A stretch of 64,000 bases of DNA from Amphiscolops sp. MND2022 (lineage: Eukaryota), in assembly GCA_964187785.1 (NCBI GenBank), contig OZ076409.1, forward strand, positions 68,078,001 to 68,142,000, written 5' to 3'. The translations under genes were made by a program, and so were the position numbers. Under the pieces are notes generated by a model, which was not told the origin of the DNA, searched no databases, and was given only the letters and a program-made list of their open reading frames with translations. Shown in pieces: positions 5,465-28,120 of the stretch; positions within the stretch are counted from its first letter, which is position 1, and every line of letters begins with the position of its first letter.

Positions 5465-5491
5465 TGTCCCAGGCGTCCGCCTGAGATGGCA
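5465..5491 (+). repeat. First 27 bp of the element B 5' LTR, separated from the rest by element A
   Basis: tgtcccaggcgtccgcctgagatggca matches 38200-38226 with one mismatch, and the match continues at 24703. Confidence 0.9.
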
Positions 5492-6224
5492 TGTAACGAC
5501 AAGCTCTCACCATTGTCGCCGTAACCATAAGAGTAGGAGGAACACATGGCATGGGTATTTGCCCGGGACAGGCGCCCATGGCCATGAGTCCATTTTGCCT
5601 CCTTCGGGTAAGAAATGTCCCGTCAGAGGAGGATTCCGCTTCTTGTGAAGTGCTCGCCGGCCTGATCCAGTCTGTAATTGCTATCAGTAGTGCGCATTAC
5701 GCTTTTTCTTCGAAACCAACACTTAGACAGCCTTTAAAAAATGCAAGTGGTGGAAAGGAAAAATCAAATTTTTTCGAAGTTACACAGGAGATCGAAACGA
5801 GTAGCTCACGAGCTGTTACAATAAGAAAATACGAAAATTACTACATAATTAGCACTTTTGAGGCAGCAATTAGCCGGGACACAAGCACGGATGCTTGGTC
5901 AAGCTAATTGACTCATTTTTGGTAATCACAGCGTCTTGTAACGCTTCGCTGAAGAAAGCACTGGTTAGAACAAAGTTCAGTCCGTTTTGGCAGAAATTTG
6001 AGTCTTTTTCTGACAGCGGCTGTATTTTTCTGCAGTCTTCTTGTTCGGTTGGGGTCTCTCTCGAGTCTTTTGCTCAAATTCTCTTCAATTCCGTGGGCAG
6101 GTACTTGAATAAAGACACGCTGCCGTCTAGCGGAATATGACTCTTTAGTAGAGGAGATATAGTCCCTTGAACGAAATTTTCATCGAAATTTTCGAAATCG
6201 TGCACTCGATAGGTAATCGCTACA
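5492..6224 (-). repeat. Element A 3' LTR (733 bp)
   Basis: TGTAACGA...TCGCTACA imperfect terminal inverted repeat. Direct repeat of 23969-24702. Confidence 0.95.
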
Positions 6225-6240
6225 TACACTCCCCGGGGTC
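6225..6240 (-). other. Putative polypurine tract of element A
   Basis: Minus strand reads gaccccggggagtgta immediately before the 3' LTR. The purine run is short. Confidence 0.45.
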
Positions 6241-7235
6241 TAGTCTTGACGTCCCCGTCAAGTGTGGGTTGGCGTCATCGAGTCTGTACCCAGAGTCACC
6301 TGTGTCCCACTGAGGAGGTAGAGTGCACATCAAGTAGCGCTGGGCAGTTCATTGGGACATCGTCAAGTTGGCCTCGTGGAAGTGTTTTTGACCCAGCGTT
6401 GCTGCATTTTGATCAAATCAACACCACTTTGTATACAAATCTTATACGGCAAGGTCATTATTTTTTGTAGCCTGTCGTGAGCAATTCAGGCGTTAAAATT
6501 TCTTTTCGGCCATTCAAGAAAAATTTTTTATTTGCCGTTAGTGTTAAAACTTGTTTTAAGGTCAACGACCATCACATGACTGTTCGAAACTTATTTTCCG
6601 AAGCTCGGGAGCTTCGCACTACTTGGCGTTTGATAAAAGTTCTTTTGGTAAGCAGTTGCCATAAAATCAATCAATTAGTACGGTCAATTTAAAATTTCTT
6701 TTGCGAGACTTACTCTCGATCCTATCAGGTAGCTCAAGAAAAACAATGGTCGAGGTTCATCAATCTTTTTATTCTATCCATTTCTCATCTCTCCCTTTTT
6801 GTTTCCTTTTCCTTCATTTTTTCTTTTTGTCTTTTTCGACAATAGCAACAGTGTAAACAATCACTAGTAACTAAAAGGGTGTAATAGCACCGAAAATTTA
6901 GAGCACGGAGTGCGCACAGCGCATCCACATCTAGCATAAGGTAGCATGAAAAAGCACTAACTGCAAACACAAATTGCAAGTTGAATATTGCATCTAACTA
7001 AGGCAAGGCAAAGACGCAGTTTCATGGTTGGGTTGCCGGTCCCAAAACGGAATAGTAAGGAGGATGAAGCCCGGGGGCTTCATCTCCACTTGGAGATTTT
7101 TACCCATGACCAATTGGCACTTCCATAATCGAAGTTTAGCAACAACAGAGATTGAAACCATGAGATTTCGCAAAAGTTCATCTAGCGTAAGACTATTGAA
7201 GTTAGAAATCGAATGGCGACAATGTTAGGTTTGTT

Positions 7236-10200
7236 TTACTGGGTGGCGGAGGAGTGACGCGCTCTGGGGGAGACGTCGGCCTTTGGTTGCAGTTCGGACA
7301 GGGATCCTCTTCGCGTATTTCCTTCTCGCAGGACTGGCTTTGGTTCGGCGCTGGCAGTTTCATGGGTCCTGGGAGTCGTGTTTGAGCCACTAGGGCCATC
7401 TTCTGCGGCTACGGGAGTTGAGGCTTCTGGCGAATGTTCTTGCGCTGCATTGGCTGAGCCACTAACATTGGCAGAACTTGTGGTCGACGTGGAGATTGGG
7501 ATCTGCACGTCCAATCTACTGGCATTAAACAGGTGCGGTAGATCTAGCGGTCTATTGCGGGTGGCAATGGGTCGTTTCTGCTTGGCGCTGAGTTTCGGGC
7601 GTAGATCAGGTCGGCCCCAGAGCCCGCAGGCTCTGGACCAGTTGTCCCTGTTTGCATGTTCTATAATTTGTCTGGAGGCTTCCCATTCGGGTCCGAGGGG
7701 ATCACTCAGCAATTCCATGACGTGGTAGCAAGTCTCCGCTGGCATGTCGCTTCCCATAGTGACCCTCGCCTCTGGATTCCAAACAGGCATTGTCAGTGGG
7801 GGGATGATCAAACCTTTCAGGCGCCCTTGGCGTTCCTCCAGGGTCCTTGACATCCACACGCCTAGTTTGTAGTGATCGCGATAGGCGTACTGCTCATCAA
7901 AGCCCTTCTCGACCATGCTGATTGGCTTAGACCGGATATAACCGATGGGTCCTCGCCAGTACCTGGCTGGAAGCTTGATCATTTGAAAATTATACTCCTG
8001 ATTTGTGTGACCGCCCATGGTTTGCACGCATTCGGTCACGTACTTTCTGAGGTGTGCGAAACTCCAATTAAATCGCTGTGGGATTCCAAGGTGATCTAGG
8101 GGCGAATTGTACCAATTCACCGGGCCGTATTCGCGAGGTAAGGGGCACGCCTTCTTCGTTCGGGCTTTGAGAATACCGGCCAGGTTTTCGTCTTGCTGCG
8201 TCTCATTCTTTATGGTGGTATACATGCGGGGTACTAGCAGAAACAGCCCACGTTCAAGCATCTGTTGATAGTTGTGCGGTTTTACGTTCTTCAGATAAGT
8301 CAGGATGGATACTGTTAGTGTCTCCGAGGCCAGTCGCAGAGGCTTGGTGGGATAGCGAAGTATCCCGGTTGGGCCAAATATCGGAGTTAGCACGGGTGCT
8401 AACACCGGTACAAGATCTTCGACTTCAGCCAAAGTGAAATCTGCCAGCTGGTTAGGTGTCAAAAATCCAGCTACCTCGGTCACTAGCTGACGTCCGTCAT
8501 ATAATGGTTGGTGCTTATCCACCCCCACGAAAAGTCCCGAGGCAAAGACCAGACTGCAATATATCCAGTGATATAACGAAGTTGTCATGCGCTCCAGGTG
8601 AGCGGGATAATCCTGAGCGTCTTTTCGTTGTAACAGCTTGGCTAAGGCGGTGAGGCCTGAGATATTCCCTCGTGCAATCACTAAATATGAAAATAGCCAT
8701 TCCAGATTACACTCGGTAACCAGGTCGGTCAATATCATCATTGGGCCAGCTACGAAGCGTTTCTGCCCGAAAGTGAGCATCAGTGCAAAGAGTTCGTTTA
8801 CTTGCATGGTACCGATAATCTCGCTGATTTCGATCAACCAGTTCTCGTCTAAATCGAACTCAACTCGAATAACATCGGGACTCCAACCCAATCCCAAACA
8901 GATGGCAAACTGGTCGGTTGACATCCCAAGCTCTTTTGCAGTGTCTGCTACGGTGGTAGTTTTTAGCCGCTGGTACCAGGCGTCGTAGGTGCTGCTGAAG
9001 GCTTGGATTTCAGCCTGAGTCTCGCTCGTCAGTTTTGCAGCAATGTACTTCATTCCCACTGATAATTGGTCAATTGTGAGGTCCTGGGCAAATTGAACTC
9101 GCGGGATGGCTCGTTCTACTTCTCGGTCACTGGGGACTTTGCTCATTATGGCAGTGACTTCCGCAAGATCAGTTTTAATACAAGTCTTTCCACCGGAGGA
9201 GCGCGCGCGCTCTATCCAGTTATTCAGGCGGATTGCCTCACATTCAGCCGTACTGGGTTCTGGGACTCGCCTTTCTCCGTCGTTGTTGAATACTAACAAG
9301 CCCATACGAGTGCCGTGATCAAAATAGATGGCATCATCGATTGTCAGCTGCGCGTTCCCTGTCTTTTCCACTGACTGTAGCACTTTAGACACTGAGGCAA
9401 CATACCCCATGTAGGAAAGCCAGGAGGGACGAAAGTCGTTGGAGCTGATCCGCATATTGGGCGCGCAGATCGCAAAGTCTATTTCTCTACATTTGCAAAT
9501 TTCTGTTACCATGTAGATAAATCTCTGCAAGGCGGGAGGCCACTGGCAGAAACCTGGGGGTGTCACAAACAGGGCTGTCACCTTGAGTTTATCCTTTAAG
9601 ATGTTTTGGGCCTTTTCCATGGCTCGGGCCATGTTCAGTGCTGCGTTGCGTACTGTTGTTCGCTGTGCTGGACTTGGATTTATAATTTCAACGTTCGCGA
9701 TCTGGGCCATTAGTCCTTCACAGGCCATGTGATCGAAAACGTTACTGATGATTACTCTGCGTGGGGGTGGCTCTTTGAAGGTCCCCGTCATCTCAGGGTC
9801 AAACATGGTGACCAACACTTCGGCCATCTCGGGAATACGTGACAGCGGTAGAGTAAAAACCATCACGTCTGACAGCACATTGTCAATGGGGACATTCTTG
9901 AGGAATGTTGAGTCTATAAGTAAGGCGAAGCGCGCACGCTGCAACCTTTCTTTTGGCATTGGTAGCTGGGCTTCGAGGTCACGGGCGTACCGTGGGTTGA
10001 TCTCGAAGGTCTCTCCAGCGTTGAGGAAACATCGATTAGCGAATTGCCCACGAAGGTCAATGTTGAGGGCGTCCAGGTAATTGTCTTCCACGTTTGGCAG
10101 CATATTCATTGCCTTCCCTAGCCATGGCGGCTCATTGGTAGGGGTGTGGTCGGGGCGGATTGGACGATTCATGAATACAGGTACATTCGCCTTCTTCAAT

Positions 10201-10667
10201 TTCGCATGCTCTTCGTCATTCGGAGGACACATGTTCTTCTCAAATAGCCATTCGGGCGATACTATAACTGCCGATTCCCAGATACGTCGGGAGTCCTTGG
10301 TGATCAGTGTGCCCTTTGTGTTTTGCATTGGACTCAGGTACGTCGGTTGTTTCGTAAAGGTCCTCTTAGTTGGGTGTTGAATTGCCTGTTTGCGGAGTGG
10401 GGTTCCAGTTGGACCACTGTTGGTTACCTTCAATCCTGGGTAATCACCCATTATGTCCTTGACAGTTCGCTGAGATTCAGGGGTGCCTTGATAACCCACA
10501 GTTTGCTCCGTTTGTGGCTGTCTTGATGTAGAAGGCTTAGGAGTCGCTCGTTGAGCCAGCGACTCGCGTGTTGTAGACTGCGTGGATGGTGGCTGCGGCA
10601 GTCCTTGTTGTTCGCCTGTTACGTCCGGTTGTGATTGGGGTGAGGGAAGCACGGATGCTTCCGACAC
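7236..10667 (-). CDS. Element A accessory ORF2b (1143 aa; frame open to 10898) with a degenerate SGNH/GDSL hydrolase-like domain
   Basis: Long intact ORF downstream of pol. Motifs LLIDST, FTLPLSRI, RVIISNVFD, LFVTPPG and NDFRPS fall in SGNH block order (~9935-9375). No in-frame ATG at its 5' end, so it is probably continuous with ORF2a. Confidence 0.75.
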   Translation of the reverse strand: MSEASVLPSPQSQPDVTGEQQGLPQPPSTQSTTRESLAQRATPKPSTSRQPQTEQTVGYQGTPESQRTVKDIMGDYPGLKVTNSGPTGTPLRKQAIQHPTKRTFTKQPTYLSPMQNTKGTLITKDSRRIWESAVIVSPEWLFEKNMCPPNDEEHAKLKKANVPVFMNRPIRPDHTPTNEPPWLGKAMNMLPNVEDNYLDALNIDLRGQFANRCFLNAGETFEINPRYARDLEAQLPMPKERLQRARFALLIDSTFLKNVPIDNVLSDVMVFTLPLSRIPEMAEVLVTMFDPEMTGTFKEPPPRRVIISNVFDHMACEGLMAQIANVEIINPSPAQRTTVRNAALNMARAMEKAQNILKDKLKVTALFVTPPGFCQWPPALQRFIYMVTEICKCREIDFAICAPNMRISSNDFRPSWLSYMGYVASVSKVLQSVEKTGNAQLTIDDAIYFDHGTRMGLLVFNNDGERRVPEPSTAECEAIRLNNWIERARSSGGKTCIKTDLAEVTAIMSKVPSDREVERAIPRVQFAQDLTIDQLSVGMKYIAAKLTSETQAEIQAFSSTYDAWYQRLKTTTVADTAKELGMSTDQFAICLGLGWSPDVIRVEFDLDENWLIEISEIIGTMQVNELFALMLTFGQKRFVAGPMMILTDLVTECNLEWLFSYLVIARGNISGLTALAKLLQRKDAQDYPAHLERMTTSLYHWIYCSLVFASGLFVGVDKHQPLYDGRQLVTEVAGFLTPNQLADFTLAEVEDLVPVLAPVLTPIFGPTGILRYPTKPLRLASETLTVSILTYLKNVKPHNYQQMLERGLFLLVPRMYTTIKNETQQDENLAGILKARTKKACPLPREYGPVNWYNSPLDHLGIPQRFNWSFAHLRKYVTECVQTMGGHTNQEYNFQMIKLPARYWRGPIGYIRSKPISMVEKGFDEQYAYRDHYKLGVWMSRTLEERQGRLKGLIIPPLTMPVWNPEARVTMGSDMPAETCYHVMELLSDPLGPEWEASRQIIEHANRDNWSRACGLWGRPDLRPKLSAKQKRPIATRNRPLDLPHLFNASRLDVQIPISTSTTSSANVSGSANAAQEHSPEASTPVAAEDGPSGSNTTPRTHETASAEPKPVLREGNTRRGSLSELQPKADVSPRARHSSATQ

Positions 10668-11593
10668 TTTTGATTTTGTTTGGTTTGGCGTTTTGGAGGT
10701 TGTGGTCTTCTCGTTGGAGATCTTTTTGTCGGGTGGTGGCTTGCTCGAGGGGCTGTCAGTGGTTGTTGAGTCTTTTTTGTTGGAGAAGGGTCGTTGCGTT
10801 TTCTGGAGGCAGGGCGGCTCTCTCCTCCCCCCTTTTGAGAAGAGCGGGAAGGCGAACGACTGCGCTCTACAGTCACGGTGCGGGAGTGTCCTGGCTGTTC
10901 AGACTGAGGATTGATGTGGGGAATAGTGATGACATCTTGACGTGTTTGAGTTGAAGTGACATTGTCGTTGCGAATAGTAACAGTGGGCAGAGCAATTCGG
11001 CGTAGTTCAGGCCAACACTGCTCCATGGATCGCATGAAATCATCGTAATTGGGGTTGACAGCTACTGCTTGCAGTGCTGAGATGACTGCTTGCTCCGCCA
11101 TTGATTGATTAGGCAAGTTAGGCACTATAGGAGCAGGAGTGCGCGCACGCACTACTGCTTGTGGTGTTGATGCAGGAGGTGGCGGTGGAGGTGGAGGCGG
11201 GCAAGAAGGGATCTGTAGAGATCTGGTTTGATGGACTCCGCCATTCGCAGGACTGTATGAGATCGCCGCACGATCATCCGTAAAGTGATGCGTGAGATCA
11301 TGGCCGTGCCACACTCCATCTTGGTATGTCATGGATCGTTGGAACCCAGGAAAGCCTGAAGTAATAGATATCGTCAGCATAGGGGCTTGCAATTGTGACT
11401 CCATCTGGGCTATGATTGCCGCCACCCCGGCAACTGTAGCTGGCGACAGACCTTGGTCGAGTCTGTCTCGAATAAAGGCAATTTGTGGGGTACGTTGGAC
11501 ACGCGCAGTGTCGTAGACGCGTTGCCCCAAGGCAGGAGAGTCATCTGAAGACCTTGGAGGGACGTTGTTGCTTCCATCGTTATCTTGGTTCAT
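10619..11593 (-). CDS. Element A accessory ORF2a (Pro/Ser/Arg-rich; likely N-terminal part of ORF2)
   Basis: ATG at 11593 (MNQDND), preceded by the splice-acceptor-like cactctttcag. Overlaps ORF2b, which is in the -1 frame. Confidence 0.65.
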   Translation of the reverse strand: MNQDNDGSNNVPPRSSDDSPALGQRVYDTARVQRTPQIAFIRDRLDQGLSPATVAGVAAIIAQMESQLQAPMLTISITSGFPGFQRSMTYQDGVWHGHDLTHHFTDDRAAISYSPANGGVHQTRSLQIPSCPPPPPPPPPASTPQAVVRARTPAPIVPNLPNQSMAEQAVISALQAVAVNPNYDDFMRSMEQCWPELRRIALPTVTIRNDNVTSTQTRQDVITIPHINPQSEQPGHSRTVTVERSRSPSRSSQKGGGESRPASRKRNDPSPTKKTQQPLTAPRASHHPTKRSPTRRPQPPKRQTKQNQKCRKHPCFPHPNHNRT

Positions 11594-11603
11594 GACGGTA
11601 ATT

Positions 11604-11620
11604 CTGAAAGAGTGCAGGTC
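11604..11620 (-). promoter_or_regulatory. Putative splice acceptor for a subgenomic ORF2 mRNA
   Basis: Minus strand reads cctgcactctttcAG|aattaccgtcATG, between the pol stop (11818) and the ORF2a ATG. Confidence 0.5.
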
Positions 11621-11817
11621 GATTGTAGCACACTTGATAGTAGGGCAGTACCATAGGTCATTTTGAGGGTAATACCAGGGAAAGTAATAGAATATCACAC
11701 ATTAACATTGAAGAAAAAGGTAACTTATTAGTTTCAAATAAACTCCGTGTCGATTCACTAAACTTAATCGAGCGGACAAAAAACAAAACAACGAAAAAAA
11801 AGAAGAAAGCAAAAGTT

Positions 11818-14800
11818 CTACGGAAAGCTAGCGACGCTTGCAATAGATACGTAAACGCGATCGTGAAGAACGACGGTCAAGGGGGTGTCAGCGAACACGT
11901 CCATCAAACAGGTATAAAAGTCGAAAAGATTACGTATTGGGCGCTCAGGATCAATGATGGCAAAGTGTACTTCTATCGCCTCCAAGCGCTCGAGTAACGT
12001 TTTCAAATGATCAAGACATCCAAAGAGAATATCGGCGAGCATAGGGCAGCGAGGTGTAGCCCGTGTGATTAAAAGATGGATAGTCTGAGGATGGCCGTCT
12101 ATCAAAGATGTGGGTAGCGTTACAATATTGCCGACCTCCGGTCGAAGTTGAAAGATTGCGTCTGCACCATGCTCACGAATGACGTAACGAAGAGCGGCAG
12201 AATTAGTTTCCAGGCTTGCGGGACAACATAAAACAATGTGATGGGGAGTCTGCAGGAAGTCCGTATTGGCATACTGCACATAGTCAACCAATTGAGGTCT
12301 CACGGCTCCATGGTATACTAACTCTCGTCCGGGGTCTTTGGAGAGAGCATCGGTACATGTGTTCGGGAGGAGGCCCTTAATGGCGCCCAAGTCTTGCCAC
12401 ACAGATCGCGGCAACGATTGGTTATCAATGTTAGCCCTGGACCATGTATCCAGTGCGTGCAGGGCTGATTGGAGTGATACAGGGCTAGGAAATGAGTGTG
12501 TCCACTCGTCCAGGAATCTGATTCGTGAAAAGTTCGATAAGACTGCTACGATAAGTTCTAGCCACCATTCAAACTTAATTTTACCACGATATAGGTCTAT
12601 AGTGTGGAAACAAGTGATTCTATCAGGAGAGGCCATCGTCCGCAAACTCTCCAGACAGGTGTTCAAGTCAGTGGGATGAACCAGGTCAGATGCTTGTTTG
12701 GCCGTAACTAGTAGCCACCAGTTGCTTGTAGGCTGATAAACGTCTCCTGGTTTTGCGGTGACGTTGTACTTGTCATATAAGAGGTCAGCAGGAGTACAGC
12801 GTATCATTTGGATAGGCTCTCGTTCATAGTTGAAAGGACCAAAGGCAATATTTGTAGGCAAAGGGGGAAGAGTGATGGGTAAGGTGAACTCCAAACCAAC
12901 AAGATCATAGGTCCACTCCTTGAACCTTGGGCACGGGGCCTTTGCTATCCTAGAATCTTTCATTCTGGATAGGATATAGTCCACGGGATATGGAGTGTCG
13001 CTGCGTTGTAGCCCAGTATATGTCTTCTCGGCTCGAATAACCAAACGGTCAACCGTTCCGCTTGGAAGCGATTTCTCCTGTTCACGTGCTAACAGGACTT
13101 TCTGGGGTTTGATTGGGAAGCCCGCGTGGACCATGTAGTTACATTCGCAGTCTCGTAGGCCACATGTTCCGCAACGATATCTGGGAGTGCGATTGCCTCG
13201 CAGTCCATAACGAGCGTTGGTCGATTCTGGCGGTGTTGCTTGATCTGAGGTTACCGCCGCGCTAGGGGCAGAAGTGTCAGTGTCCATGGATGGAGTGTTA
13301 CGAACACGGGTAGGAGTGTTGGGTCTGGCGTGCGTTATACGAGGAGGTCTTCCTCTGGGACGGCCTCTTTTGCGAGCGCCTCTAATAGCACCTCTCCGTT
13401 GGTGACCACGTGGTAGCGAGGCTCGCGGCCTCGCTCTGCCTGGCTGACGTCCCCGCGGTCCACGCCCTCTAGGAGCATTGGAAAGTTTCGTGGTGGGAGC
13501 TGCGTTATTGTTGGTGGGAATTGTCGCAGGGGGAACAGATCCCTTTTCGTCATTGGTCGTTGGTGTCTCAGCACCGTCGTCGTCTAAGGTTGGGTTGAGA
13601 ACATTGTCATCGATGAGGGGCCAAATGGGAAAGTTACTCAACATATCCGTAAAAGATGGATTTGTCAATAATGGGGCGGATGTACCGGTCAAAGAGGTGC
13701 CGGCACTTTCGGTGGGTACGTGGATAGTAGGATTCGGGGCGATGTCCAATGCGTCGGGTACTGCTTCATTCTCTGAGAATAGAGCCTCCATGGCAGGTAG
13801 TGGTGATATTGGCATTTCGGGAATAGGCGCAGGTTCATCTACATGTGACGACAAGATAGCACTCTCATCAGGACTAGCCTGAACACTCGACAGGAGTACA
13901 TCAGAACGTTCATCGTCAGACTCAGTCGAAGAATAGCCAAATTGTTGATAATGTAGGCGGCTGCCACCTGCGCGCATGCGTGTGCGTAACCGTGTGTCCA
14001 TCCAATGTCTTTGTCGAGAAGGCAAAGAGGCATTACTGGCTTCTGAAGTTGGCTCCTCCGCACGATAAGAAGGTTGCGAAGCATCGTCTCTCACCTCCTC
14101 GTGGGATTGTTCAGGATCAGGGTCCATGATGATAGCAACCTCACCGTTATGCGCAGGAACAGCTGCCCATTCTGTTGGACCACCATGATGCGGTTTCAAT
14201 CGTTCGAAATGTACTTTCTGACCAGTGTCAAGTATGTAGACGCGTCCCTCTTGTAGCACTCGTGCTATCTTGTGAGGACCACGCCACGCTCTCATCAATT
14301 TGGGAGATCCCTTTTGAGGAATGTATCGGCAGAATACCCAAACAGGTTCGCCCACTTCGTAGGCTTTAGCACGAATTGATCTGTCGTATTTCAACTTTTG
14401 TCGTTGCTGGGCTTGATGCGTGTTGCGACGGACTAAGTCATGAATCTCTTGTTGTCGAGCCAGCACATGTTCCACATAGGCTTCGTGTGATTCGAATGAC
14501 TGAGTTGCAAATTCTGGATACAAGAAAGTCAGGGGTATAGCTTTTTCCATGCCTCTAGTCAGCATATACGGGGAGAATCCAGTAGTGGCATGACGTGTGG
14601 AGTTGTATGCACCCATGACTTCATCTAGATACTGATCCCAATCACGCATTCGTCTAGAGCAGAATACACGCAGTAGGGTGAGTAGCGTTCGGTTTTGTCG
14701 CTCTACCAACCCTTGAGTCCTGGGGTGGCCAGCAGTTGAGGTTACTTTGGTCACTTGGGCGGCTTTCATAAACTCAGCGGATACTGCTGCGGTGAAGTTG

Positions 14801-16263
14801 GGAGCATTGTCTGACTGCATTCTCGTCGGCGTTCCATGGCGGGCAAACCATTTCTGCAACAACAATTTTGAAGTGGTGGCTGCATCATATTCATCGTGGT
14901 TGCACGGTACAGCTTCTGCGAGCTTAGAGAAGTGATCGATAATAACCAATATCCCTGTGTTGCCATCATCAGAGGGACAAATCTTCATGTGGTCATATTG
15001 GACTAGCTCGTTAAAATAACCGCTTTGGATATTTTTCAAGTGGAAGCGTACATCACCAGGCTTGTCACGTACTTGTTGACAAGTGATGCATTGGCTGACG
15101 TATTGTCCAATGGTGCGGCGGATACCTGGCCAAGTGTGGCGCTCTTGAATTCTGGCCAAGACTTTCGCGATGCCCTGATGTCCCATCGCGTCGTGGGCCT
15201 TGAATAGTATCTCATGCTGATACAATTGTGGCATCACTATCATGCAGGGGCGTTCATGCAAAGCTCTTTGACTTTTCGAGTACTTTACACACAAAATCCC
15301 GTTGGTGTTTATCAGCAGAAGGTTCTTCTTTTGTTTGTGGTAGTTTTTGGCAAAGGCACGTACATTTTCCGGAAAGATGTCATGATCTATTGATTCTTGC
15401 ATTACTAATTTCTTGATAGCCAATATATGAACGTCACGGTTTTGTGCTAGTAGTAGATCTTTCAACCCGTGGATTGTGTTAGCATGTTCATGCAGTTCCA
15501 TCGATATGCTGTTTACCACAAACGCGGCTTGCTTTACGTGCTCTGGTGCAGTGCTGGTTGCTTGCTTTTCCGTCAGTGGATAAGTGGTTCTTGATGGTAC
15601 GTTAGCAGCATGCGTGGGGAGCAAATAGTCTCGTTGATATTCCTCGGTCAGTTCCAACCAATCCTCGGGATACTCTGAATAAAGTTCGGCAGGCAGTGTC
15701 AATTCTGGTTTTGGCAATGTAGGTAGGGGCGCTCTCATGGCTTCGTCGCGTATGATCGCACTTCGTTTGCTTTGTCCGCTCTTTCGCGTGGGAGCGGCAA
15801 CTGTGGTCTCGGGTGAACCTTGGCTACCCAACCTCTGCAAGTGTGCAGGCAATTCTGGGTGATTTGGTATCACACGTCCGTGGACATCGAACCATGGGGC
15901 TAGCGGGAGTTTGTTGTATTCCTCCTGTGATATGAAGTCCCATTTGTCTGCAATTGCGGGTAAACCCTTTAGTTGCTTTTCGTGTTTTTTGTAATCATTT
16001 GTTCGTTTGCTAAGACCGTCAGCATTTCGGTGTTGCGTTCTGGGTCGGTGCTCAATACTGAAGTGATATTTTTCAAGAGCCATAATCCATCGACCGATGA
16101 TCGCCTGATCCATCGAATATGTTTTTAGCCAGGATAGGGCCTGATTATCTACCCTCAGTGTGAATTTTCGTGGACAGAGATAACTGTGGTTTTTCAAGAT
16201 GAAATAGTATGCAGCATACATTTCCAATTTTGGGGCTCCATACTTTGCTTGCGTAGCGGTCAA
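11818..16263 (-). CDS. pol: Element A pol C-terminal part: end of RNase H, integrase, and a long tail with AT-hook, Cys cluster and macrodomain-like units
   Basis: RNase H end (VDNQAL, NADGLS). HHCC (HDAMGH...CITC). DDE core (YDH, SDN, VERQN). GPY/F-like WRGPHKI. In frame with the upstream ORF across a single TGA at 16273-16275. Confidence 0.93.
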   Translation of the reverse strand: MTATQAKYGAPKLEMYAAYYFILKNHSYLCPRKFTLRVDNQALSWLKTYSMDQAIIGRWIMALEKYHFSIEHRPRTQHRNADGLSKRTNDYKKHEKQLKGLPAIADKWDFISQEEYNKLPLAPWFDVHGRVIPNHPELPAHLQRLGSQGSPETTVAAPTRKSGQSKRSAIIRDEAMRAPLPTLPKPELTLPAELYSEYPEDWLELTEEYQRDYLLPTHAANVPSRTTYPLTEKQATSTAPEHVKQAAFVVNSISMELHEHANTIHGLKDLLLAQNRDVHILAIKKLVMQESIDHDIFPENVRAFAKNYHKQKKNLLLINTNGILCVKYSKSQRALHERPCMIVMPQLYQHEILFKAHDAMGHQGIAKVLARIQERHTWPGIRRTIGQYVSQCITCQQVRDKPGDVRFHLKNIQSGYFNELVQYDHMKICPSDDGNTGILVIIDHFSKLAEAVPCNHDEYDAATTSKLLLQKWFARHGTPTRMQSDNAPNFTAAVSAEFMKAAQVTKVTSTAGHPRTQGLVERQNRTLLTLLRVFCSRRMRDWDQYLDEVMGAYNSTRHATTGFSPYMLTRGMEKAIPLTFLYPEFATQSFESHEAYVEHVLARQQEIHDLVRRNTHQAQQRQKLKYDRSIRAKAYEVGEPVWVFCRYIPQKGSPKLMRAWRGPHKIARVLQEGRVYILDTGQKVHFERLKPHHGGPTEWAAVPAHNGEVAIIMDPDPEQSHEEVRDDASQPSYRAEEPTSEASNASLPSRQRHWMDTRLRTRMRAGGSRLHYQQFGYSSTESDDERSDVLLSSVQASPDESAILSSHVDEPAPIPEMPISPLPAMEALFSENEAVPDALDIAPNPTIHVPTESAGTSLTGTSAPLLTNPSFTDMLSNFPIWPLIDDNVLNPTLDDDGAETPTTNDEKGSVPPATIPTNNNAAPTTKLSNAPRGRGPRGRQPGRARPRASLPRGHQRRGAIRGARKRGRPRGRPPRITHARPNTPTRVRNTPSMDTDTSAPSAAVTSDQATPPESTNARYGLRGNRTPRYRCGTCGLRDCECNYMVHAGFPIKPQKVLLAREQEKSLPSGTVDRLVIRAEKTYTGLQRSDTPYPVDYILSRMKDSRIAKAPCPRFKEWTYDLVGLEFTLPITLPPLPTNIAFGPFNYEREPIQMIRCTPADLLYDKYNVTAKPGDVYQPTSNWWLLVTAKQASDLVHPTDLNTCLESLRTMASPDRITCFHTIDLYRGKIKFEWWLELIVAVLSNFSRIRFLDEWTHSFPSPVSLQSALHALDTWSRANIDNQSLPRSVWQDLGAIKGLLPNTCTDALSKDPGRELVYHGAVRPQLVDYVQYANTDFLQTPHHIVLCCPASLETNSAALRYVIREHGADAIFQLRPEVGNIVTLPTSLIDGHPQTIHLLITRATPRCPMLADILFGCLDHLKTLLERLEAIEVHFAIIDPERPIRNLFDFYTCLMDVFADTPLTVVLHDRVYVSIASVASFP

Positions 16264-16272
16264 CTTCTTGCT

Positions 16273-19200
16273 TCAGAATACAATCGGTCGCAATTTGCGA
16301 CTCTCAGGTGGTCCTTGCCATTGGTGCAGAATGCCTGATATAGCTACACCACTAGCATCTGTGTCGAGAACAAATTCGCCTTCAGTGTCAGGTTGCGCCA
16401 GAGCAGTGGCTTCCATTAGTGCCACTTTGATGCTGTTAAAGGCTCGCTGCTGCTCCTCCCCCCATAAAAATGAAGAGTCTACGCCTGTTATCGCGTGTAA
16501 AGGGGCAACTAGTTTTGCATGCCACGGGATAAAATCCCGATAGTAGTTGGCAAAACCCAAGAAACTTTGCAATTCAGTCTTGGTTCGCGGGATATCCCAT
16601 TCTTTCAGCTTGGTGACAGCTTTTGGATCTGGCTTGATACCATCTGCGGATACGACCCGGCCCAAATATTTGATCTCCGATTTCATGAAGTCACACTTGG
16701 AGACTCTCATTTTGAACCCGGCCTCACGCAGGCATTGGAATACTTCGCGTAGTCTATCCATGTGGTCCTCGATGGTCTCGGTAGCAATCACAATGTCATC
16801 GATATAGGCCATGACCATGCTTCCTTCACGGTTCACTATTCTTTGTAGCGCTCGCGCTATTGCCCGTTGAAATGTTGCTGATGCGTTACACATACCAAAA
16901 GGCATACGCCGCCACTCAAATAACCCAAGTTCACAAGCGAAGGCAGTCTTTTGACGATCGGCTTTTCGGACAGGAATTTGCCAGAATGCCCACGCCAAGT
17001 CAATACTAGTATAGATTTTGGCTTTGCCCAATCGGGATAGACTCTCATCGATACGTGGCAAGGGATAAGCGTCTTTGATGGTCACTTCATTGAGTGGTCG
17101 AAAGTCACAACAGAATCGCAATTCACCACTCTTTTTTTTGACCATAACAATTCCACTCGCCCAAGGGGATAGGGAAGGTTGTATCATTCCCAAAGCTAGC
17201 AAGTCACGGACTTCTTGGTTAGCACGTTCTGCCTTGTCAGGCGACATTCGTCTTGCACCTTCGCGGTGGGGTACAGCCCCTGGCTCTACTTCCACCGGGT
17301 GCTTAGCGATTTTACACTTGCCAATATCGGCTTTGAATTTCATAAACAAATCATCAAATTCGTTCAAAAGTTTACTAAGCGTGTCGCTGGCGGTCGATCC
17401 CCACAAACCGCGCACCTCGTCGAGTTGTGCTTCCGGGCCCGGTATCGGAGCCATTAACGCCGGATCGGTTCGTTTTTTTACTTCGCGCTCGGACAAGCCT
17501 AGTTCTGACGGTTCGGTAGAGGACAAAAACTCAAATTCAGATGAAGAACTATATTCAGAAGAAGAATCAAGGTTCATCTGTTCGTAAACTTTACAAACAT
17601 AATTTGCATTTGACTGCTGAGTTTCATTTGATTGCCCGGGGACAATTTGGGGGATGGCTTTATGAACCATCGTTACGGGTACTGCGGTTCCTAAAAGGGT
17701 GCCCTTTTTGATCCGCTGCACGTTGCTGGTAAGATTTCCTAAACTGACGTAAAGGAAGCCAGTCTCCCCCACGGTCGCCACGGTGTCCTCTAAAAAGATG
17801 GCGTTTTTTAACATTCGGTTAGGTGTTTGAAAATTGATTAGCACGGTTCGAAACATGAAAGGTTCTAAGTTGTCTACAAGCAATTTAGCGCGTAGTATTG
17901 CGCGTTCAAAAGGTTGCAACACTACGTCCTGTGCAATCGCTACCGACGAATTGAGTGATTCGTTACTTACTTGTGTGTGGGCATGGTACCACACTGGTTC
18001 AGAGGGAGCTCGGACAATGACTTTCATCGCGGTCAAATCTACCAAGACTTGATAGGCTCTTAGGAAATTTCTTCCCAGGAGGAAATCTTCCACTCCCATA
18101 GCGTCATCAACTACCACGAAGTTAGTTTCCAATTCGTAGCCTCCCAATTGGAACTTGACTTTCTCTGCTAGACCAAAAGTCTTGATCGTCTTTCCATTCG
18201 CGGCATATAAGTCAATACCATAAGGTCGTAAGAGTGTCCCAGTGCGCACGGCGACTCGATTGTAGGCTGAGAAGGTGAGGATGGACACTCCTGATCCAGT
18301 GTCTATCAGACCACGTAATGGTACGGGAGCAGCATCGGGAACCACGAATGAAACTACGAGCGACGCACGCTCATCGATTCTCGCCTCACCAGTTGGTTCT
18401 TGAGCATCAATGTTATAGCAGCACAGCTCTTGTGGTCCCAAGCAGATTCCAGGAGGAAACGCGTCAGTAATAATAGTGGCACCAAAACGCATGTCTACAC
18501 CATCTATGCAAACTTTGACTGGAATTGGAGAATAGGCATGATACGTCGAAGTGACACCTTTTACCTGCCATTCTTCCGGTTGGGGCAGGGTCAATTGTCG
18601 GCAATTCTCGTTTGCGGTTATCTCTTCTATCAGAGCGTCTAAGGTGAGTTCTGGGCGGGTTTCTCTCTCAATCGCCAACAGTAGTCGGACAGACATGATA
18701 GTGCGTCCCGAGGGATCAAAAGTAGTTGGCTCTGGGCTCGCTTGGATTTGGATCTTGCCACATGTGACGGTAAGGGGCGTCGTCACGTGAGCGGCTTCAG
18801 CGGGGCGAAGCATGAGTACCATTTCGCTGTCACTCATTGTTTGGGAAGCAGATGGCTGTTCAGCCCAGAGGCTGTAGGCCAAATCCTCATGTACTGGAAC
18901 ATTTTGGCATTGTGATGCAGAGTGTTCGGTCATGCCACAATTAACACAGAATACGGGGCCAGAACATGCAGAGGCCACATTGTTCTCACACAGGTTTACT
19001 CGCTCTTCGGGTGCAGCGCGAGCCGCGGGTTTCCTTGCTAGGTCTCGATTTGGGCATTCCCTTGCAAAGTGACCTGGTAGTCCACAGTTGAAGCATGCTC
19101 CTTGGGGAATCACTCTCGCTGGTTGCTGCTGTGCAGGAGCCTGTTTTACTGATGCAGGGCCTGGTGGAGCTATCTGGGGTTTTGCCTCTCGCTGTCCTTG

Positions 19201-21585
19201 ATTTGGAGGTAGCACGTTTTGCGGTAGGCCTGGTGCTGGGTGAACCAATTTCCCTGGCACGAAAGGGTGAGGCCTCGATTTCATTGCATACCTTGGGTCG
19301 TAAGGCTTTGACGTGTTTGGGCGATGCCGTTGCAATTGTCTCGTGGTGAACCTTAGGGATTCTACAGTTGGCGGCTCGGTCAGATATGCCTCTGCAGCGT
19401 ACACCACGGCCAACTCTTGTCGCAGCGTCGGGTCATTGACGCCATCTATAAAACGTTGCAGGATTTCATAACGACGTGTAGTGATAGGCTCGTCTGGGAA
19501 ACCTTGGGTGCGCAGACCTTCCAATGCATCTAAGAATTGCATCCAATCCTCTTTTTCCTGTTGGACACGAGACATGAAGGTTTGCCTGACGTGCATGCGG
19601 TTCCCACCGGTTCCAAACCTGCTGGCCAAGAGAGAGAATACCTTGTCGGGCTCGTCTCGTTCAGGTTCAGATTTGTTGATTATATAATTTCTCGCCTCCC
19701 CTTCCAGGTGGTCGATGATAGCCCATGCTCTGTCGATCTTTGGGGATTTTGCATGCACCCTTTCTAGAAATCGCTTCATCACTGGGAGCCATCCATCGAC
19801 AGAACCATCTTTAGTGCCTTTGTATACCGTAGGGCGCACCCTAGTTTGATCCCGATTAGCAATCAGCGGCGCTAGTTCCTTGGACATAGCTTTGGATATT
19901 GCCTCGGTGAACCTAAGTTGCTCCGGTGATATAGGCGCTTCTTCAGTGATAGCTGGTGGCGGGATACTGCTGCCTCGCGTTGAGTTGACAGAGTCATCGG
20001 TGCTTTCGGGGAGAGTCACTTCTCGGTGTCTAGTGCTGCTGGCGCATGGGTTGCCCGGGGGCAGTTCATCGTTCGCGGTTTGGAGTTCTGCGGCTGATTC
20101 TCCCAAAGTCGCATTTGCTGTTTGGAAGGTGCTGGTGACTTCAGTTAGTTCGTTTGTGCGTGTGGGCTCTCGCAGGCCGGTGATCCCCATGCTTGAAGTG
20201 TCGATAGTTATCACCTCGCACGTTGGTTCCTTCTTGTGAGTTTTGGTCGTGGGTGGAATATATTTTGTTGATACCGCAGATGGGATAAATTTCGTTGATG
20301 TTGATGCGGCTTCTCCATTTGAGACCAGAGTTTGTGGCAAAGGCGCGTACCTGGTCAAGTGTTGTTTAGAGCCGGATGGGTTTGTTGCGGTCGTCACACT
20401 CTCTTTTGGCTTGAGGGAAACGCTTTTCATGGGTTTTGGCAGTGATATATCGGTGTCTTGCAGCAACTCTTTGATGGTGTTGCCTGCTGGTGCGGGTTGA
20501 GGTTGGATATTTTTCAACATAGTGCCCATTGCTTGTATCTGTGAACATACCTCTTGCAGTTGAGCTTCCATGGGTACTTCTCTTTCGGTCACCATGTCCT
20601 TTATTTCGGCCATTCGATAACCCATGGCATCCATTCGGGCTGCCTGAATTTCATGTCCTTGCGCTTGTCGTTCAGTTGATGTTCGCAGTTCAGTTTGCAC
20701 GGCTTCTATCTCCTCCATTATTGATTGATGCTCCCTATCGCACCTTGCTTTACGTTCAGACAGTTGTGAAGCAGCTTGCTTCACGCCTATTTGAGCATCT
20801 AATAGAGCTTTGCGCGCTTTCGCTGCTTCATGTACGGCTCGGTATGCCGAAGATCGGGCAGATGCAGCCTTTGATGAGGGTGAGGATGAGCGCGAGTCGC
20901 CATGAGGTCCTGTAGTGCCAGTCTGTGCTAGTAGAGCTGGAGGCCGTACTTGCTTACCCTTCCCAGATGCTCGGGGAGCCGTAGCTTCTTGAAGACGTGC
21001 CCTGGCATAATTCATACCCCCGACATAAGACATTTGTTGCAATATCTCTGCCGTGTTCGCAGTGCTCTCGCTTGCCATGCTGGGAGCCTTGAGTTGTCCA
21101 GTGGCATTCAAGCAACTCATTTCAGCTTCTTCCTCAGCGTTTGTCCTGTTGGAGTTGGGCCATGTTCCTGCTTCGTCAGTACCGAAAGGTGTAACGGCTA
21201 CTTTGGTCAGTTCTTGCAACCATTTGGACGTGTGCGCCTGACTTCCTGTTTCGTCTGCTGAACCTCCGATATCATCGGTAGTCTTGGCGATCGGCTTAGC
21301 CTGATATTCCTCCGATGCGTCGTCTGACATAGGGTCTGAAAAATCGGGTTCCATAACGAAACTGTCGTCAGTTGGCCAATCTTCCTCCCTGGGGTCTGAG
21401 GTCAGGTCTGATATTGCACTGAGATTTGTCTCGCACCCCGTTGGGTCTGGTGTCTTTGATGCTTCAGTGCATCGCGAGGTGTCCTTCCTCCCCCCTTTTG
21501 AAAGATTAGAGCATCGCCGGGTGTTCGTGCGGCTTAATGTTCTCGTTATAGAATTCCAAAGGTTACGCAAACTGTTGGTTTTCAT
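16273..21585 (-). CDS. gag-pol: Element A gag-pol N-terminal part: Gag, protease, RT, start of RNase H
   Basis: Knuckles CFNCGLPGHFAREC and CVNCGMTEHSASQC. Protease LIDTGSG...LLGRNFL. RT motifs RFCCDFR, MPFG, YIDD. RNase H LDTDASG. Confidence 0.96.
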   Translation of the reverse strand: MKTNSLRNLWNSITRTLSRTNTRRCSNLSKGGRKDTSRCTEASKTPDPTGCETNLSAISDLTSDPREEDWPTDDSFVMEPDFSDPMSDDASEEYQAKPIAKTTDDIGGSADETGSQAHTSKWLQELTKVAVTPFGTDEAGTWPNSNRTNAEEEAEMSCLNATGQLKAPSMASESTANTAEILQQMSYVGGMNYARARLQEATAPRASGKGKQVRPPALLAQTGTTGPHGDSRSSSPSSKAASARSSAYRAVHEAAKARKALLDAQIGVKQAASQLSERKARCDREHQSIMEEIEAVQTELRTSTERQAQGHEIQAARMDAMGYRMAEIKDMVTEREVPMEAQLQEVCSQIQAMGTMLKNIQPQPAPAGNTIKELLQDTDISLPKPMKSVSLKPKESVTTATNPSGSKQHLTRYAPLPQTLVSNGEAASTSTKFIPSAVSTKYIPPTTKTHKKEPTCEVITIDTSSMGITGLREPTRTNELTEVTSTFQTANATLGESAAELQTANDELPPGNPCASSTRHREVTLPESTDDSVNSTRGSSIPPPAITEEAPISPEQLRFTEAISKAMSKELAPLIANRDQTRVRPTVYKGTKDGSVDGWLPVMKRFLERVHAKSPKIDRAWAIIDHLEGEARNYIINKSEPERDEPDKVFSLLASRFGTGGNRMHVRQTFMSRVQQEKEDWMQFLDALEGLRTQGFPDEPITTRRYEILQRFIDGVNDPTLRQELAVVYAAEAYLTEPPTVESLRFTTRQLQRHRPNTSKPYDPRYAMKSRPHPFVPGKLVHPAPGLPQNVLPPNQGQREAKPQIAPPGPASVKQAPAQQQPARVIPQGACFNCGLPGHFARECPNRDLARKPAARAAPEERVNLCENNVASACSGPVFCVNCGMTEHSASQCQNVPVHEDLAYSLWAEQPSASQTMSDSEMVLMLRPAEAAHVTTPLTVTCGKIQIQASPEPTTFDPSGRTIMSVRLLLAIERETRPELTLDALIEEITANENCRQLTLPQPEEWQVKGVTSTYHAYSPIPVKVCIDGVDMRFGATIITDAFPPGICLGPQELCCYNIDAQEPTGEARIDERASLVVSFVVPDAAPVPLRGLIDTGSGVSILTFSAYNRVAVRTGTLLRPYGIDLYAANGKTIKTFGLAEKVKFQLGGYELETNFVVVDDAMGVEDFLLGRNFLRAYQVLVDLTAMKVIVRAPSEPVWYHAHTQVSNESLNSSVAIAQDVVLQPFERAILRAKLLVDNLEPFMFRTVLINFQTPNRMLKNAIFLEDTVATVGETGFLYVSLGNLTSNVQRIKKGTLLGTAVPVTMVHKAIPQIVPGQSNETQQSNANYVCKVYEQMNLDSSSEYSSSSEFEFLSSTEPSELGLSEREVKKRTDPALMAPIPGPEAQLDEVRGLWGSTASDTLSKLLNEFDDLFMKFKADIGKCKIAKHPVEVEPGAVPHREGARRMSPDKAERANQEVRDLLALGMIQPSLSPWASGIVMVKKKSGELRFCCDFRPLNEVTIKDAYPLPRIDESLSRLGKAKIYTSIDLAWAFWQIPVRKADRQKTAFACELGLFEWRRMPFGMCNASATFQRAIARALQRIVNREGSMVMAYIDDIVIATETIEDHMDRLREVFQCLREAGFKMRVSKCDFMKSEIKYLGRVVSADGIKPDPKAVTKLKEWDIPRTKTELQSFLGFANYYRDFIPWHAKLVAPLHAITGVDSSFLWGEEQQRAFNSIKVALMEATALAQPDTEGEFVLDTDASGVAISGILHQWQGPPESRKLRPIVF

Positions 21586-23950
21586 GATTTCGCACGTCTC
21601 GAAAAGTCAAAAATCGATCTAGGGGTCGTACCGGCGTGAAACTTACACAGCGCGTTGATACCGTGGTGTGGGGCCGGAAACCGTGCGTTTGGGGCTTGCG
21701 GAACAGCTGATTCGCAAACAATTGAGTTTTTAGACAATTTTTGAGTTTTTTAGATTTCTTTATAAATGACTAAGATGCTTCGGACGCAACGCGTAATCAT
21801 CGGAAACACTTGAAAATTGGCCACCTGACCTTGTGGTAGGTGTACTACGCGATAGCAAAATCAAATCTAAGCTAAGGTTTTTATTTCAAGATTCGGGCTG
21901 ATCCGGACGTTCGGTACCCTTAGTCATCAAGATACATCAATTTTCATGCTTATTTCAAGATTATGCTTTACTGAAAAAAGCTAGCGGGCTCAAAATTTGC
22001 AAAACAACGTAGTATCTGGTACAAATGATAGAAACGAACGGCAATTCAACCTCGCTTTTTAATTAAGGTACTCGGATCACTCAGGAAAACTTTGAAAAAT
22101 TTCCCTTTATGCCCAACTTTTTGAGTGGTACGTTTTTTTTTTATTTTCTCACCAAGTACCGGTTGGATTGATACGAAACCTTGTAGCTACAGTCGATGAG
22201 CGTATACAATGCCGGTGAAACCATCAATTGAAAGCGCGGACGCTTGTTTGAGGTTCCGACCTTACTTGGATAACACTAAAAATTTTGGACTACTTTTTTT
22301 TTACAAATTCGCTAAGAGGGTCACCTCAAAAAGTGGTAGGGCTGAAAAAATGGGACCTACGTGTTGCCCCACTACTCGTAGTACTAGGATAAACCCTCGA
22401 TTAGGTGTGCCCGTTAAACACGAGGCACCGACAGTTCGTCAGTTTTGGATTATTTCGGCAGTTTTATAGTCCCCTGAAGTTGAAACGTTAGAGAACTTTT
22501 TTTGACTTTGGTGAAAGTTACGTTCACCAAATTTTCGGCACTAGCGTTATTTTTAGTGGTGGTTGTGAAAATACAACCACCTTTTCGCTAAGGTCCAAGG
22601 ATCAATGACCCGACCTTAGCTCAGAGACAGTCCGGATTTTAGGAAAATGGAGGCTTTTCAGTGCATTTTTCTACTTTTCTCAGCACTGAAAAGGAATTTT
22701 GGGATGCGGTCTTCACTATAGATCGTTAAATTTACTGAATAAACTGAAAATAATAGCCCGGGGGCTATTCTAACCGTAAAAGTGTTCGTCAATAGTCAAA
22801 TTGTGTTTCTTCTAAAAGTACTATAGAAAAACCTCAAATTCACAGTTCTCGTAACTTTTTTTAAGAAGTAGTGGTTATAATTACCAAAATGGGTATTGTT
22901 GGGTACCGGCAGGTGTGCCCCAACCTAATTGCAACCATACGGGGGTGTTTGAAAGCTTCTATACAAGTTTCCCCACAAATTCAAAGTGCTAAAAATGTTC
23001 AGTCTTCCAAAAACGGGGTTTTTTCCTCACAAAATTTATACTAAGTGCCTTTTCGGGCAACTTTGAGTAGTTCGTCGCGTTTTTTTGCGAACTCATTAGA
23101 GTCCTGAGCTACTTTCATTTAATTTCTGCAGGTGTGTGGCTAGCACCAAGAGCGCTCGCGCTCATGTAAGTGTTTCGCCTCAAAATGGCCAAATTTGGCA
23201 CTTTTCGTCGAATATACATGAGAAAACGCACTTTTTTCGCACAAAACAGGTGCAAAAGCACACACTTAGTTACAGAAGGCTCGTAAAAACATTGGCAAAT
23301 GGTTGTACATAAAATTTTGAGCAACCCAAAAAATTTTTTCAACCTGACTCAAAAATATCATACAACCCGGACTGACGAGTCGTGTCTTCTCGTTCTTTTT
23401 GCTCATCACCCAGAACAGCTAGAGACAAACGGGTTGCACCATTAGACACGTCAGCATTTGTAGTACGTCTCCACCAAATTTCATTTCTCTAGGTTGCCTG
23501 TACGGGAAATGGGATCGGTGAGTCGTATAACTCGTTTCGGCAGATTGTAAGATTCCTTTGAGCAAGGATCGTCCTCTTCTCAACACTCACTTCATTGGTC
23601 ATAAAAAGCTGAAAAAGGCTAGAAAACACCTGTTAACACTTCTAGCAGCCTTCCAACGGCTTGCTGGACCAATTTGCGAGTGACCCGTCAAGAGGGTAGA
23701 CTATTTCGATCGTTACCTGTCAACTACTAAAAAAGCATAAAAATTACAACATACAGCGCTTTTTTGCAAGATTTACCTATATCCACCGGGCTTGAAGTCT
23801 TCAATAACACATACAGGGTAAAAACGTGGAAAAACTCTGCTTCTCTCCTCTTTCCATCAGAGTCGGGTCGTACTTGGCGTTAATCACCAGAGTGTCGGCT
23901 ATTTTAAAACCATTAAGGGAAGCACTTCGAAGCGATCCCTCTGTGGTCGC

Positions 23951-23968
23951 CATAAAATGTGTTCTCCA
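23951..23968 (-). other. Putative primer-binding site of element A
   Basis: TGGAGAACACATTTTATG directly follows the CA end of the 5' LTR on the minus strand. The tRNA is not identified. Confidence 0.6.
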
Positions 23969-24702
23969 TGTAACGACAAGCTCTCACCATTGTCGCCGTA
24001 ACCATAAGAGTAGGAGGAACACATGGCATGGGTATTTGCCCGGGACAGGCGCCCATGGCCATGAGTCCATTTTGCCTCCTTCGGGTAAGAAATGTCCCGT
24101 CAGAGGAGGATTCCGCTTCTTGTGAAGTGCTCGCCGGCCTGATCCAGTCTGTAATTGCTATCAGTAGTGCGCATTACGCTTTTTCTTCGAAACCAACACT
24201 TAGACAGCCTTTAAAAAATGCAAGTGGTGGAAAGGAAAAATCAAATTTTTTCGAAGTTACACAGGAGATCGAAACGAGTAGCTCACGAGCTGTTACAATA
24301 AGAAAATACGAAAATTACTACATAATTAGCACTTTTGAGGCAGCAATTAGCCGGGGACACAAGCACGGATGCTTGGTCAAGCTAATTGACTCATTTTTGG
24401 TAATCACAGCGTCTTGTAACGCTTCGCTGAAGAAAGCACTGGTTAGAACAAAGTTCAGTCCGTTTTGGCAGAAATTTGAGTCTTTTTCTGACAGCGGCTG
24501 TATTTTTCTGCAGTCTTCTTGTTCGGTTGGGGTCTCTCTCGAGTCTTTTGCTCAAATTCTCTTCAATTCCGTGGGCAGGTACTTGAATAAAGACACGCTG
24601 GCGTCTAGCGGAATATGACTCTTTAGTAGAGGAGATATAGTCCCTTGAACGAAATTTTCATCGAAATTTTCGAAATCGTGCACTCGATAGGTAATCGCTA
24701 CA
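23969..24702 (-). repeat. Element A 5' LTR (734 bp)
   Basis: Direct repeat of 5492-6224. I found only one 1-bp indel and one substitution by eye. Confidence 0.95.
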
Positions 24703-27459: not shown

Positions 27460-28120
27460 AAACTAGACCGATTGAGGTCAATGTCCAATCAGCTGGCGTG
27501 TCAGAGGAAGAGCAAAATTTCTTCAATGAGGAGGATAACGAAACGGAAGAACAGATTTGGGAACGGAAAAAACAATCCAAAAAGGGACTCATTGGACGCT
27601 GATTCCACTTTTGAATTAAAGGTGCTGAATGATGAATACAATTACTCAGAACTTAGAAAAGCCTTTATTTTCTCATGAAATGGATACATAGTGTCGAAAG
27701 ACCGCATGGTAATGAAATGTTGCGTGCTGTTAATAAGTCTCATGCAAGATGATGGGACGCATGTAATTTGCTTATGTATATGTGTGCTGTTAATATGCTT
27801 TCTAGACGCAAGGGCTTCCCGCCAACAGGTTACCTGTCGGGAAACCTCCTTTGAAGTCACTTGCATCATAATGACGTCAATAGCTAGTTGTTGCTATTTT
27901 TAGAATTGTTACTCTTTTTAGAAAGCCCTTAAGGCTATTTGTAGAATATGACAACTCATATTCTGACTGTCATGTAGTTTTTAATATATATAGCCGGGAC
28001 ATTCAGTCCCGGGGACACAGGTTGTGAAAAACTACATGTTAAAGTTACTTGTTACAGTAATATCACGTTGTATTTGCAAGTTAAAAGATAATTAACATCT
28101 TTACCTTGTGACAATTTCTT

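Follow-up and report, generated by a model that had tools for sequence, protein, structure and literature searches.

The Pol reading frame of a Ty3/gypsy-type LTR retrotransposon (ORF 16272-11818, minus strand) ends, beyond the integrase, in two predicted macrodomain folds of the ALC1/TARG1-like class, a class assignment that is confirmed at the level of structure models. The window, that is, the whole stretch of DNA that was analysed, comprises 64,000 nucleotides of Amphiscolops sp. MND2022. Judged by the residues at their active sites, the proximal domain (D1) and the distal domain (D2) are both predicted to have lost canonical ADP-ribose binding and catalysis. Our best explanation, to which we give slightly less than an even chance, is that the tandem tail would act as a non-enzymatic binding module that tethers the integration complex to a host protein or a chromatin feature. 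What stands out as new is the position after the integrase, the predicted inactivation and the duplication. Among the matches listed in a search of the open-access literature we found no macrodomain after a gypsy integrase, and the word "macro" is absent from PMC4299795, PMC6431247, PMC5408684 and PMC13524379.

The element and its Pol tail

The element occupies positions 5492-24702 of the minus strand (19.2 kb). Its two LTRs differ at 2 of 733 aligned columns, so the insertion is young. Pfam and the LTR comparison gave two LTRs and the domain order PR-RT-RH-IN, and we assign the element to the Ty3/gypsy type because of this order. The features are as follows:

23969..24702, minus strand: 5' LTR, TG...CA (LTR-LTR comparison)
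16273..21606, minus strand: Gag, which has CCHC knuckles, then protease, RT and the beginning of RNase H (ORF and Pfam)
11818..16272, minus strand: remaining Pol, with the rest of RNase H, the integrase and a long tail with two pseudo-macrodomains (ORF and Pfam)
14170..15216, minus strand: integrase with HHCC zinc domain, D-D(35)-E core and a C-terminal domain that we take to be SH3-like (Pfam PF17921 and PF00665; D-E spacing 35)
13175..14170, minus strand: Pro/Arg/Ala/Ser-rich linker of ~330 aa, probably disordered (composition; low complexity)
13342..13371, minus strand: double GRP motif, presumably AT-hook-like (motif count)
13141..13173, minus strand: CxxC-CxC (Cys4) motif, a putative zinc site (motif count)
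12505..12860, minus strand: D1, proximal truncated pseudo-macrodomain that lacks loop 1 and some of helix 1 (model, alignment)
12370..12474, minus strand: two helices between D1 and D2, predicted with low confidence (AlphaFold2)
11857..12294, minus strand: D2, distal full-length TARG1-like pseudo-macrodomain (model, profile, alignment)
12063-12061, minus strand: Arg of D2 at the Lys84 site (alignment to TARG1)
11952-11950, minus strand: Asp of D2 at the Gly121 site (alignment to TARG1)
7236..11701, minus strand: two overlapping accessory ORFs (360 aa, 1220 aa) that lie after pol and before the 3' LTR (ORF list)
5492..6224, minus strand: 3' LTR (LTR-LTR comparison)

A single in-frame stop within RNase H separates ORF 21606-16273 from ORF 16272-11818. 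The junction is open in 79 of the 81 relatives that match across it, which makes the stop a lesion of the present copy. Among named integrases, the nearest are only 28-31% identical to that of the window.

The tail past the integrase is ~780 aa long. The D1-D2 pair starts ~440 residues beyond the integrase C-terminal domain, behind the low-complexity linker, and because of this separation the tail may be cleaved off. The AT-hook-like motif is found in 54/54 tails of the window clade, which carries the tandem pair, as against 0/15 tails of a sister clade with a single domain, and the Cys4 motif in 53/54 as against 0/15, these tails being related copies and not independent events. Two GRP motifs occur in 0.24% of 10000 shuffles of the linker. 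Pfam gave no chromodomain after the integrase; the folded domains of the tail are macro, and the part upstream of D1 has no confident model.

Turning to the rest of the element, the stretch at ~18100-17650 (minus strand), between protease and RT, looks like a degenerate dUTPase-like domain by its pattern, and gave no Pfam match. A primer-site-like TGG stretch lies ~16 nt past the 5' LTR (23969-23930, minus strand), farther than usual, and a second TGG immediately adjoins the LTR. The accessory ORFs 11701-10619 and 10898-7236 share 280 nt that they read in different frames, which is either a frameshift lesion or a programmed shift, and neither has a Pfam match. Residues ~320-500 of ORF 10898-7236 (minus strand) weakly match the degenerate SGNH-like repeat of the sister-clade protein P0327 (E 5e-6, 19% identity), which also carries a GDSL_2 domain above the Pfam cut-off. 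By its sequence, this ORF may be a second dead enzyme of the lineage; a VWA-like assignment was discarded, as the ESM Atlas rows were weak. Rotifer LTR elements have GDSL ORF3s (PMC5408684).

Predicted folds and their relatives

Pfam finds no match in the tail and none for macro in 16 D2-type sequences, and the tail as a single sequence has no match in the PDB. A search with the last 460 aa returned 25 relatives, of which the full-length ones are 38-97% identical; the search of 1.84 billion representatives gave 296 matches at E 0.001, with 150 of the 296 listed. AlphaFold2, run on the last 410 aa (19 rows), predicts two alpha/beta domains with a pTM of 0.42, so the mutual arrangement of D1 and D2 is not fixed by the model.

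For the D2 model, Foldseek gave TARG1 with E 1.9e-8 and TM(target) 0.81, at rank 2 behind the PARP14 macro1-2 tandem. VIA placed TARG1 best (Z 17.0, rmsd 2.6 A, 140 residues aligned), with DarG (15.5), Bt_1257 (14.1) and Poa1p (13.3) as runners-up. A 16-row D2-type profile that included the sister clade matched TARG1 end to end with E 4.5e-7, its top five matches all being TARG1, and this result is independent of folding; a narrower D2 profile of 27 rows reached TARG1 at E 0.47 only. Thus the macro fold that the original prediction proposed for the last ~145 aa is recovered by both structure and profile search, and the TARG1-like motifs that it quoted are present in the translation.

The same prediction had placed a second, more degenerate copy at ~12830-12500, and here too a macro fold is predicted. 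D1 folded alone (48 rows, pLDDT 81.6 in AlphaFold2) gave TARG1 in 8/10 of the top Foldseek rows, with a best E of 7.5e-5. In VIA it matched TARG1 with Z 11.9 (rmsd 4.8, 120 aligned), tied with Bt_1257 (11.8) and DarG (11.2). A D1-only profile did not find TARG1 among the PDB sequences; its weak matches to ABC transporters over ~40 positions were dismissed as chance. TARG1 matches obtained with full-length-row alignments were not accepted as evidence for D1, since both stem from D2.

ESM Atlas gave, for D2, a 0.90 cluster in which 14% of the members carry Macro, which we treat as a lead only. BFVD returned viral macrodomains, with no recognisable retroelement among the named rows of the 50 listed. 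Scans of JGI metagenomes and IMG/VR gave no relatives of the tail and one distant integrase (L001). As to sequencing runs, no RNA run was listed, and one run (0.06 share) gave only short scattered pieces.

An integrase search with 73 matches and a follow-up with 22 led to the sister clade, with 53-54% integrase identity. In the sister clade Pol ends in one such domain and in the window clade in two. In an integrase tree of 33 rows (P0082 and P0099, which have no full integrase, were left out) the tandem clade has support 99/98, the single clade 100/99 and both together with P0301 100/97. The tail of P0301 resembles the domain by eye, with a doubtful hhalign E of 0.015-0.02. Profile-profile comparison gave E 1e-21 for D2 and the single-clade domain, 5.5e-6 for D1 and the single-clade domain and 1.5e-5 for D1 and D2, with reversed controls at E 0.075-0.37. 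These profile matches, and the Asp-x-x-Arg motif that the domains share (see below), suggest a single ancestor, remodelled beforehand, whose duplication took place in the window clade. A D2 profile had no match in 13 outgroup integrases (27-34% identity), a comparison that a divergent macrodomain would escape.

Are the domains still under selection? Four relatives are 68-69% identical to the window in the integrase, 43-45% in D1, 42-45% in D2 and 35-38% in the linker, and the higher conservation of D1 and D2 than of the linker, by a margin of 5-10 points only, suggests constraint. Both families are of high copy number, with clusters of 1094 and 2541 sequences. It would be improbable, in our opinion, that the domains are passengers at the Pol terminus, remnants of a formerly active macrodomain that no longer serve a function, even though every catalytic feature has been lost, D2 shares only 22-23% identity with the single-clade domain and the P0301 match is doubtful as noted above. 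Against decay speak the open frames and the confidently predicted fold in two clades whose integrases have diverged to 53-54% identity, as well as the fixed new motifs and few indels; moreover, any stop could remove a terminal remnant.

Active site and cleft

The tail shares with TARG1/OARD1 and others of the ALC1-like class (DarG, Poa1p, Bt_1257) the fold, the full-length register, the minimal domain and the Asp after strand 1. The differences lie in the active site, where Lys84 of TARG1 is mostly Arg in D2 and Ala or Ser in D1, Asp125 is absent from both and both glycine loops are replaced, and in the architecture, which is here a tandem fused to a retrotransposon Pol. Lys84 and Asp125 form the catalytic dyad of TARG1 (PMC9411070 and PMC7050489). 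In the profile register the changes from TARG1 to D2 of the window are GD to TD, the GAG loop to NSA, ITK(84) to ITR and GCGLD(125) to DPERP.

To quantify these changes, we tallied the sequences left by a 90% redundancy filter, which were 25 of 63 D2, 29 of 82 D1 and 6 of 18 single-clade sequences, many of them decayed copies; the close relatives are ENA proteins that may stem from one or few species. At the Lys84 site, D2 has Arg in 24/25 (including the window) and Lys in 1/25, the single clade has Arg in 4/6 and Lys in 2/6, and D1 has Ala in 20, Ser in 7 and other residues in two, with Lys in 0/29. Lys is thus kept, without the glycine loops, by P0335 and P0328 of the single clade and by P0171 of D2, which would be the best candidates for residual activity. 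The original prediction had stated that the glycine loops and the GCGLD Asp are not conserved, and the tally agrees: the Asp125 site holds Asp in 0/60 sequences, with Pro, Ser, Gly, Arg or a gap instead, and Gly is found at none of the four loop-glycine sites (0/60). Loop 1 is absent in 29/29 D1. The Lys84-to-Arg change, the strand-1 Asp, the single-domain sister clade and the AT-hook-like and Cys4 motifs go beyond that prediction.

In place of Gly121 we find Asp in 24/25 D2, 5/6 single-clade (one is truncated) and 26/29 D1 sequences, followed three places later by Arg in 21, 5 and 23, respectively. We read Asp-x-x-Arg as a new cleft motif common to D1, D2 and the single clade, which speaks against drift of the cleft. 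The Asp that follows strand 1, which in macrodomains contacts the adenine of ADP-ribose, is kept in 21/25 D2 and 6/6 single-clade sequences, and in 3/29 D1, where the register is uncertain. Among D2 positions conserved to at least 90% are 9/24 in the cleft vs 20/126 others (p 0.02), and across the clades 6/24 vs 13/126 (p 0.057); the test uses related, often decayed copies and our own definition of the cleft. In D2 of the window, Ser replaces one cleft Asp that is conserved elsewhere. The net charge is negative in 21/29 D1 and 15/25 D2.

In coronavirus macrodomains the loss of the glycine stretch accompanies a lack of ADP-ribose binding, as in the SARS-unique domain (SUD) and in IBV Beaudette, where one Gly-to-Ser change blocks binding (PMC2674928). 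We predict the loss of the canonical functions because of this precedent, the changed dyad and the missing glycine loops. A caution against reading inactivity from a missing dyad comes by analogy from SCO6735, reported as an active ALC1-class hydrolase with neither Lys84 nor Asp125.

SCO6735 also lends some plausibility to the idea that an altered mechanism still lets D2 and the single-clade domain recognise or take off ADP-ribose, so as to counter a PARP-type defence or find ADP-ribosylated chromatin. The strand-1 Asp, the basic residue at the Lys84 site (25/25 D2, 6/6 single-clade) and the conserved cleft would fit. We nevertheless consider it distinctly unlikely, and less likely than the original prediction had proposed: all four loop glycines are gone, the Asp in place of Gly121 would put an acid at the diphosphate position, the single IBV substitution already abolishes binding and D1 has no loop 1.

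Possible roles of the tail and its insertion site

The tether would have arisen as follows. In an ancestor, the end of Pol would have acquired a TARG1/Poa1p-like domain, whose loops would have been remodelled before the clades split (GCG to Asp-x-x-Arg, Lys to mostly Arg). The window clade would then have duplicated the domain and trimmed the proximal copy, and also gained the AT-hook-like and Cys4 motifs. In such a scheme DNA contact would fall to the basic motifs. The pseudo-macrodomains, which are mildly acidic, would use the remodelled cleft for a new ligand, probably a protein. Among the points against the tether are that the protease of the element could release D1-D2 from an integrase ~440 aa away, and that only one insertion site was seen.

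An alternative that we regard as rather unlikely is that the tail is a binder unrelated to the choice of target, cleaved off or retained in the particle, and active in particle or RNP assembly, in translation or in blocking a restriction protein. The long linker looks cleavable, the element has other accessory modules, and the ligands of SUD include RNA G-quadruplexes as well as the translation factor Paip1. However, no protease site was identified, and the AT-hook-like (54/54) and Cys4 (53/54) motifs that accompany the tandem pair suggest a role facing DNA.

The tandem SUD macrodomains (Mac2/Mac3) show no ADP-ribose binding and bind G-quadruplexes instead (PMC2674928). Like D1 and D2, they form a tandem in a viral-type polyprotein and have macro folds that lack the glycine loop, but they are structurally farther (Z 7.4-8.0), and their origin is probably separate. 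Since D1 and D2 are mostly net acidic, nucleic-acid binding by these domains themselves is less expected.

Closer in position are the chromoviruses, and as the original prediction had it, the pseudo-macrodomains lie C-terminal to the integrase, in a chromodomain-like place. Chromovirus chromodomains are C-terminal to the integrase (PMC13524379) and that of MAGGY targets H3K9me regions (10.1101/2021.11.30.470311). In both cases a host-derived domain of the reader type follows a Ty3/gypsy integrase; here, in contrast, the fold is another one, ~440 aa away from the integrase, with no known mark, and its role in targeting is putative. A more specific version of the tether, which we think unlikely, is that the Asp-x-x-Arg cleft reads a chromatin protein or mark, and that the duplication, the AT-hooks and the zinc site shifted the landing sites.

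The capture of a macrodomain by an LTR retroelement has a parallel in fish epsilon-like endogenous retroviruses, which have macro-domain ORFs (PMC4977317, citing Basta 2009). These are not Ty3/gypsy elements, their macrodomains are additional ORFs, and the citing literature, in the parts available, describes them without reported catalytic loss, duplication or a post-integrase position.

If the tether is true, an ADP-ribose eraser would have been turned into an integrase tether, the macrodomain counterpart of the chromovirus chromodomain. To our knowledge, most gypsy integrases of animals have no known guide, and descriptions of targeting modules are few. After SUD, the tail would add another independent instance in which a viral-type polyprotein has put dead macrodomains to new use, with a new macrodomain cleft. 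The module is invisible to Pfam and occurs naturally both singly and in duplicate, in families of high copy number; because both forms exist, a comparison of insertion sites can test its role directly.

The one site at hand lies ~30 bp into a BEL/Pao-like LTR. The element that this LTR belongs to (window ~5460-39696) has DUF1759 ORFs at 26354 and 28830, and its other LTR starts near 38197. Chance can explain an insertion into a retrotransposon LTR, given a single site in a repeat-dense window. Judged against the uninterrupted target copy at 38224, the apparent target-site duplication at this one site is 3 bp (GCA, 5489-5491 and 24703-24705), as compared with the 4-5 bp usual for Ty3/gypsy elements. 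Another integrase-bearing insertion is found at ~29700-32070, and there are apparent near-identical tandem duplications at 50592-56986 (~3.2 kb, 98.8%) and 25101-30069 (~2.5 kb, 99.0%).
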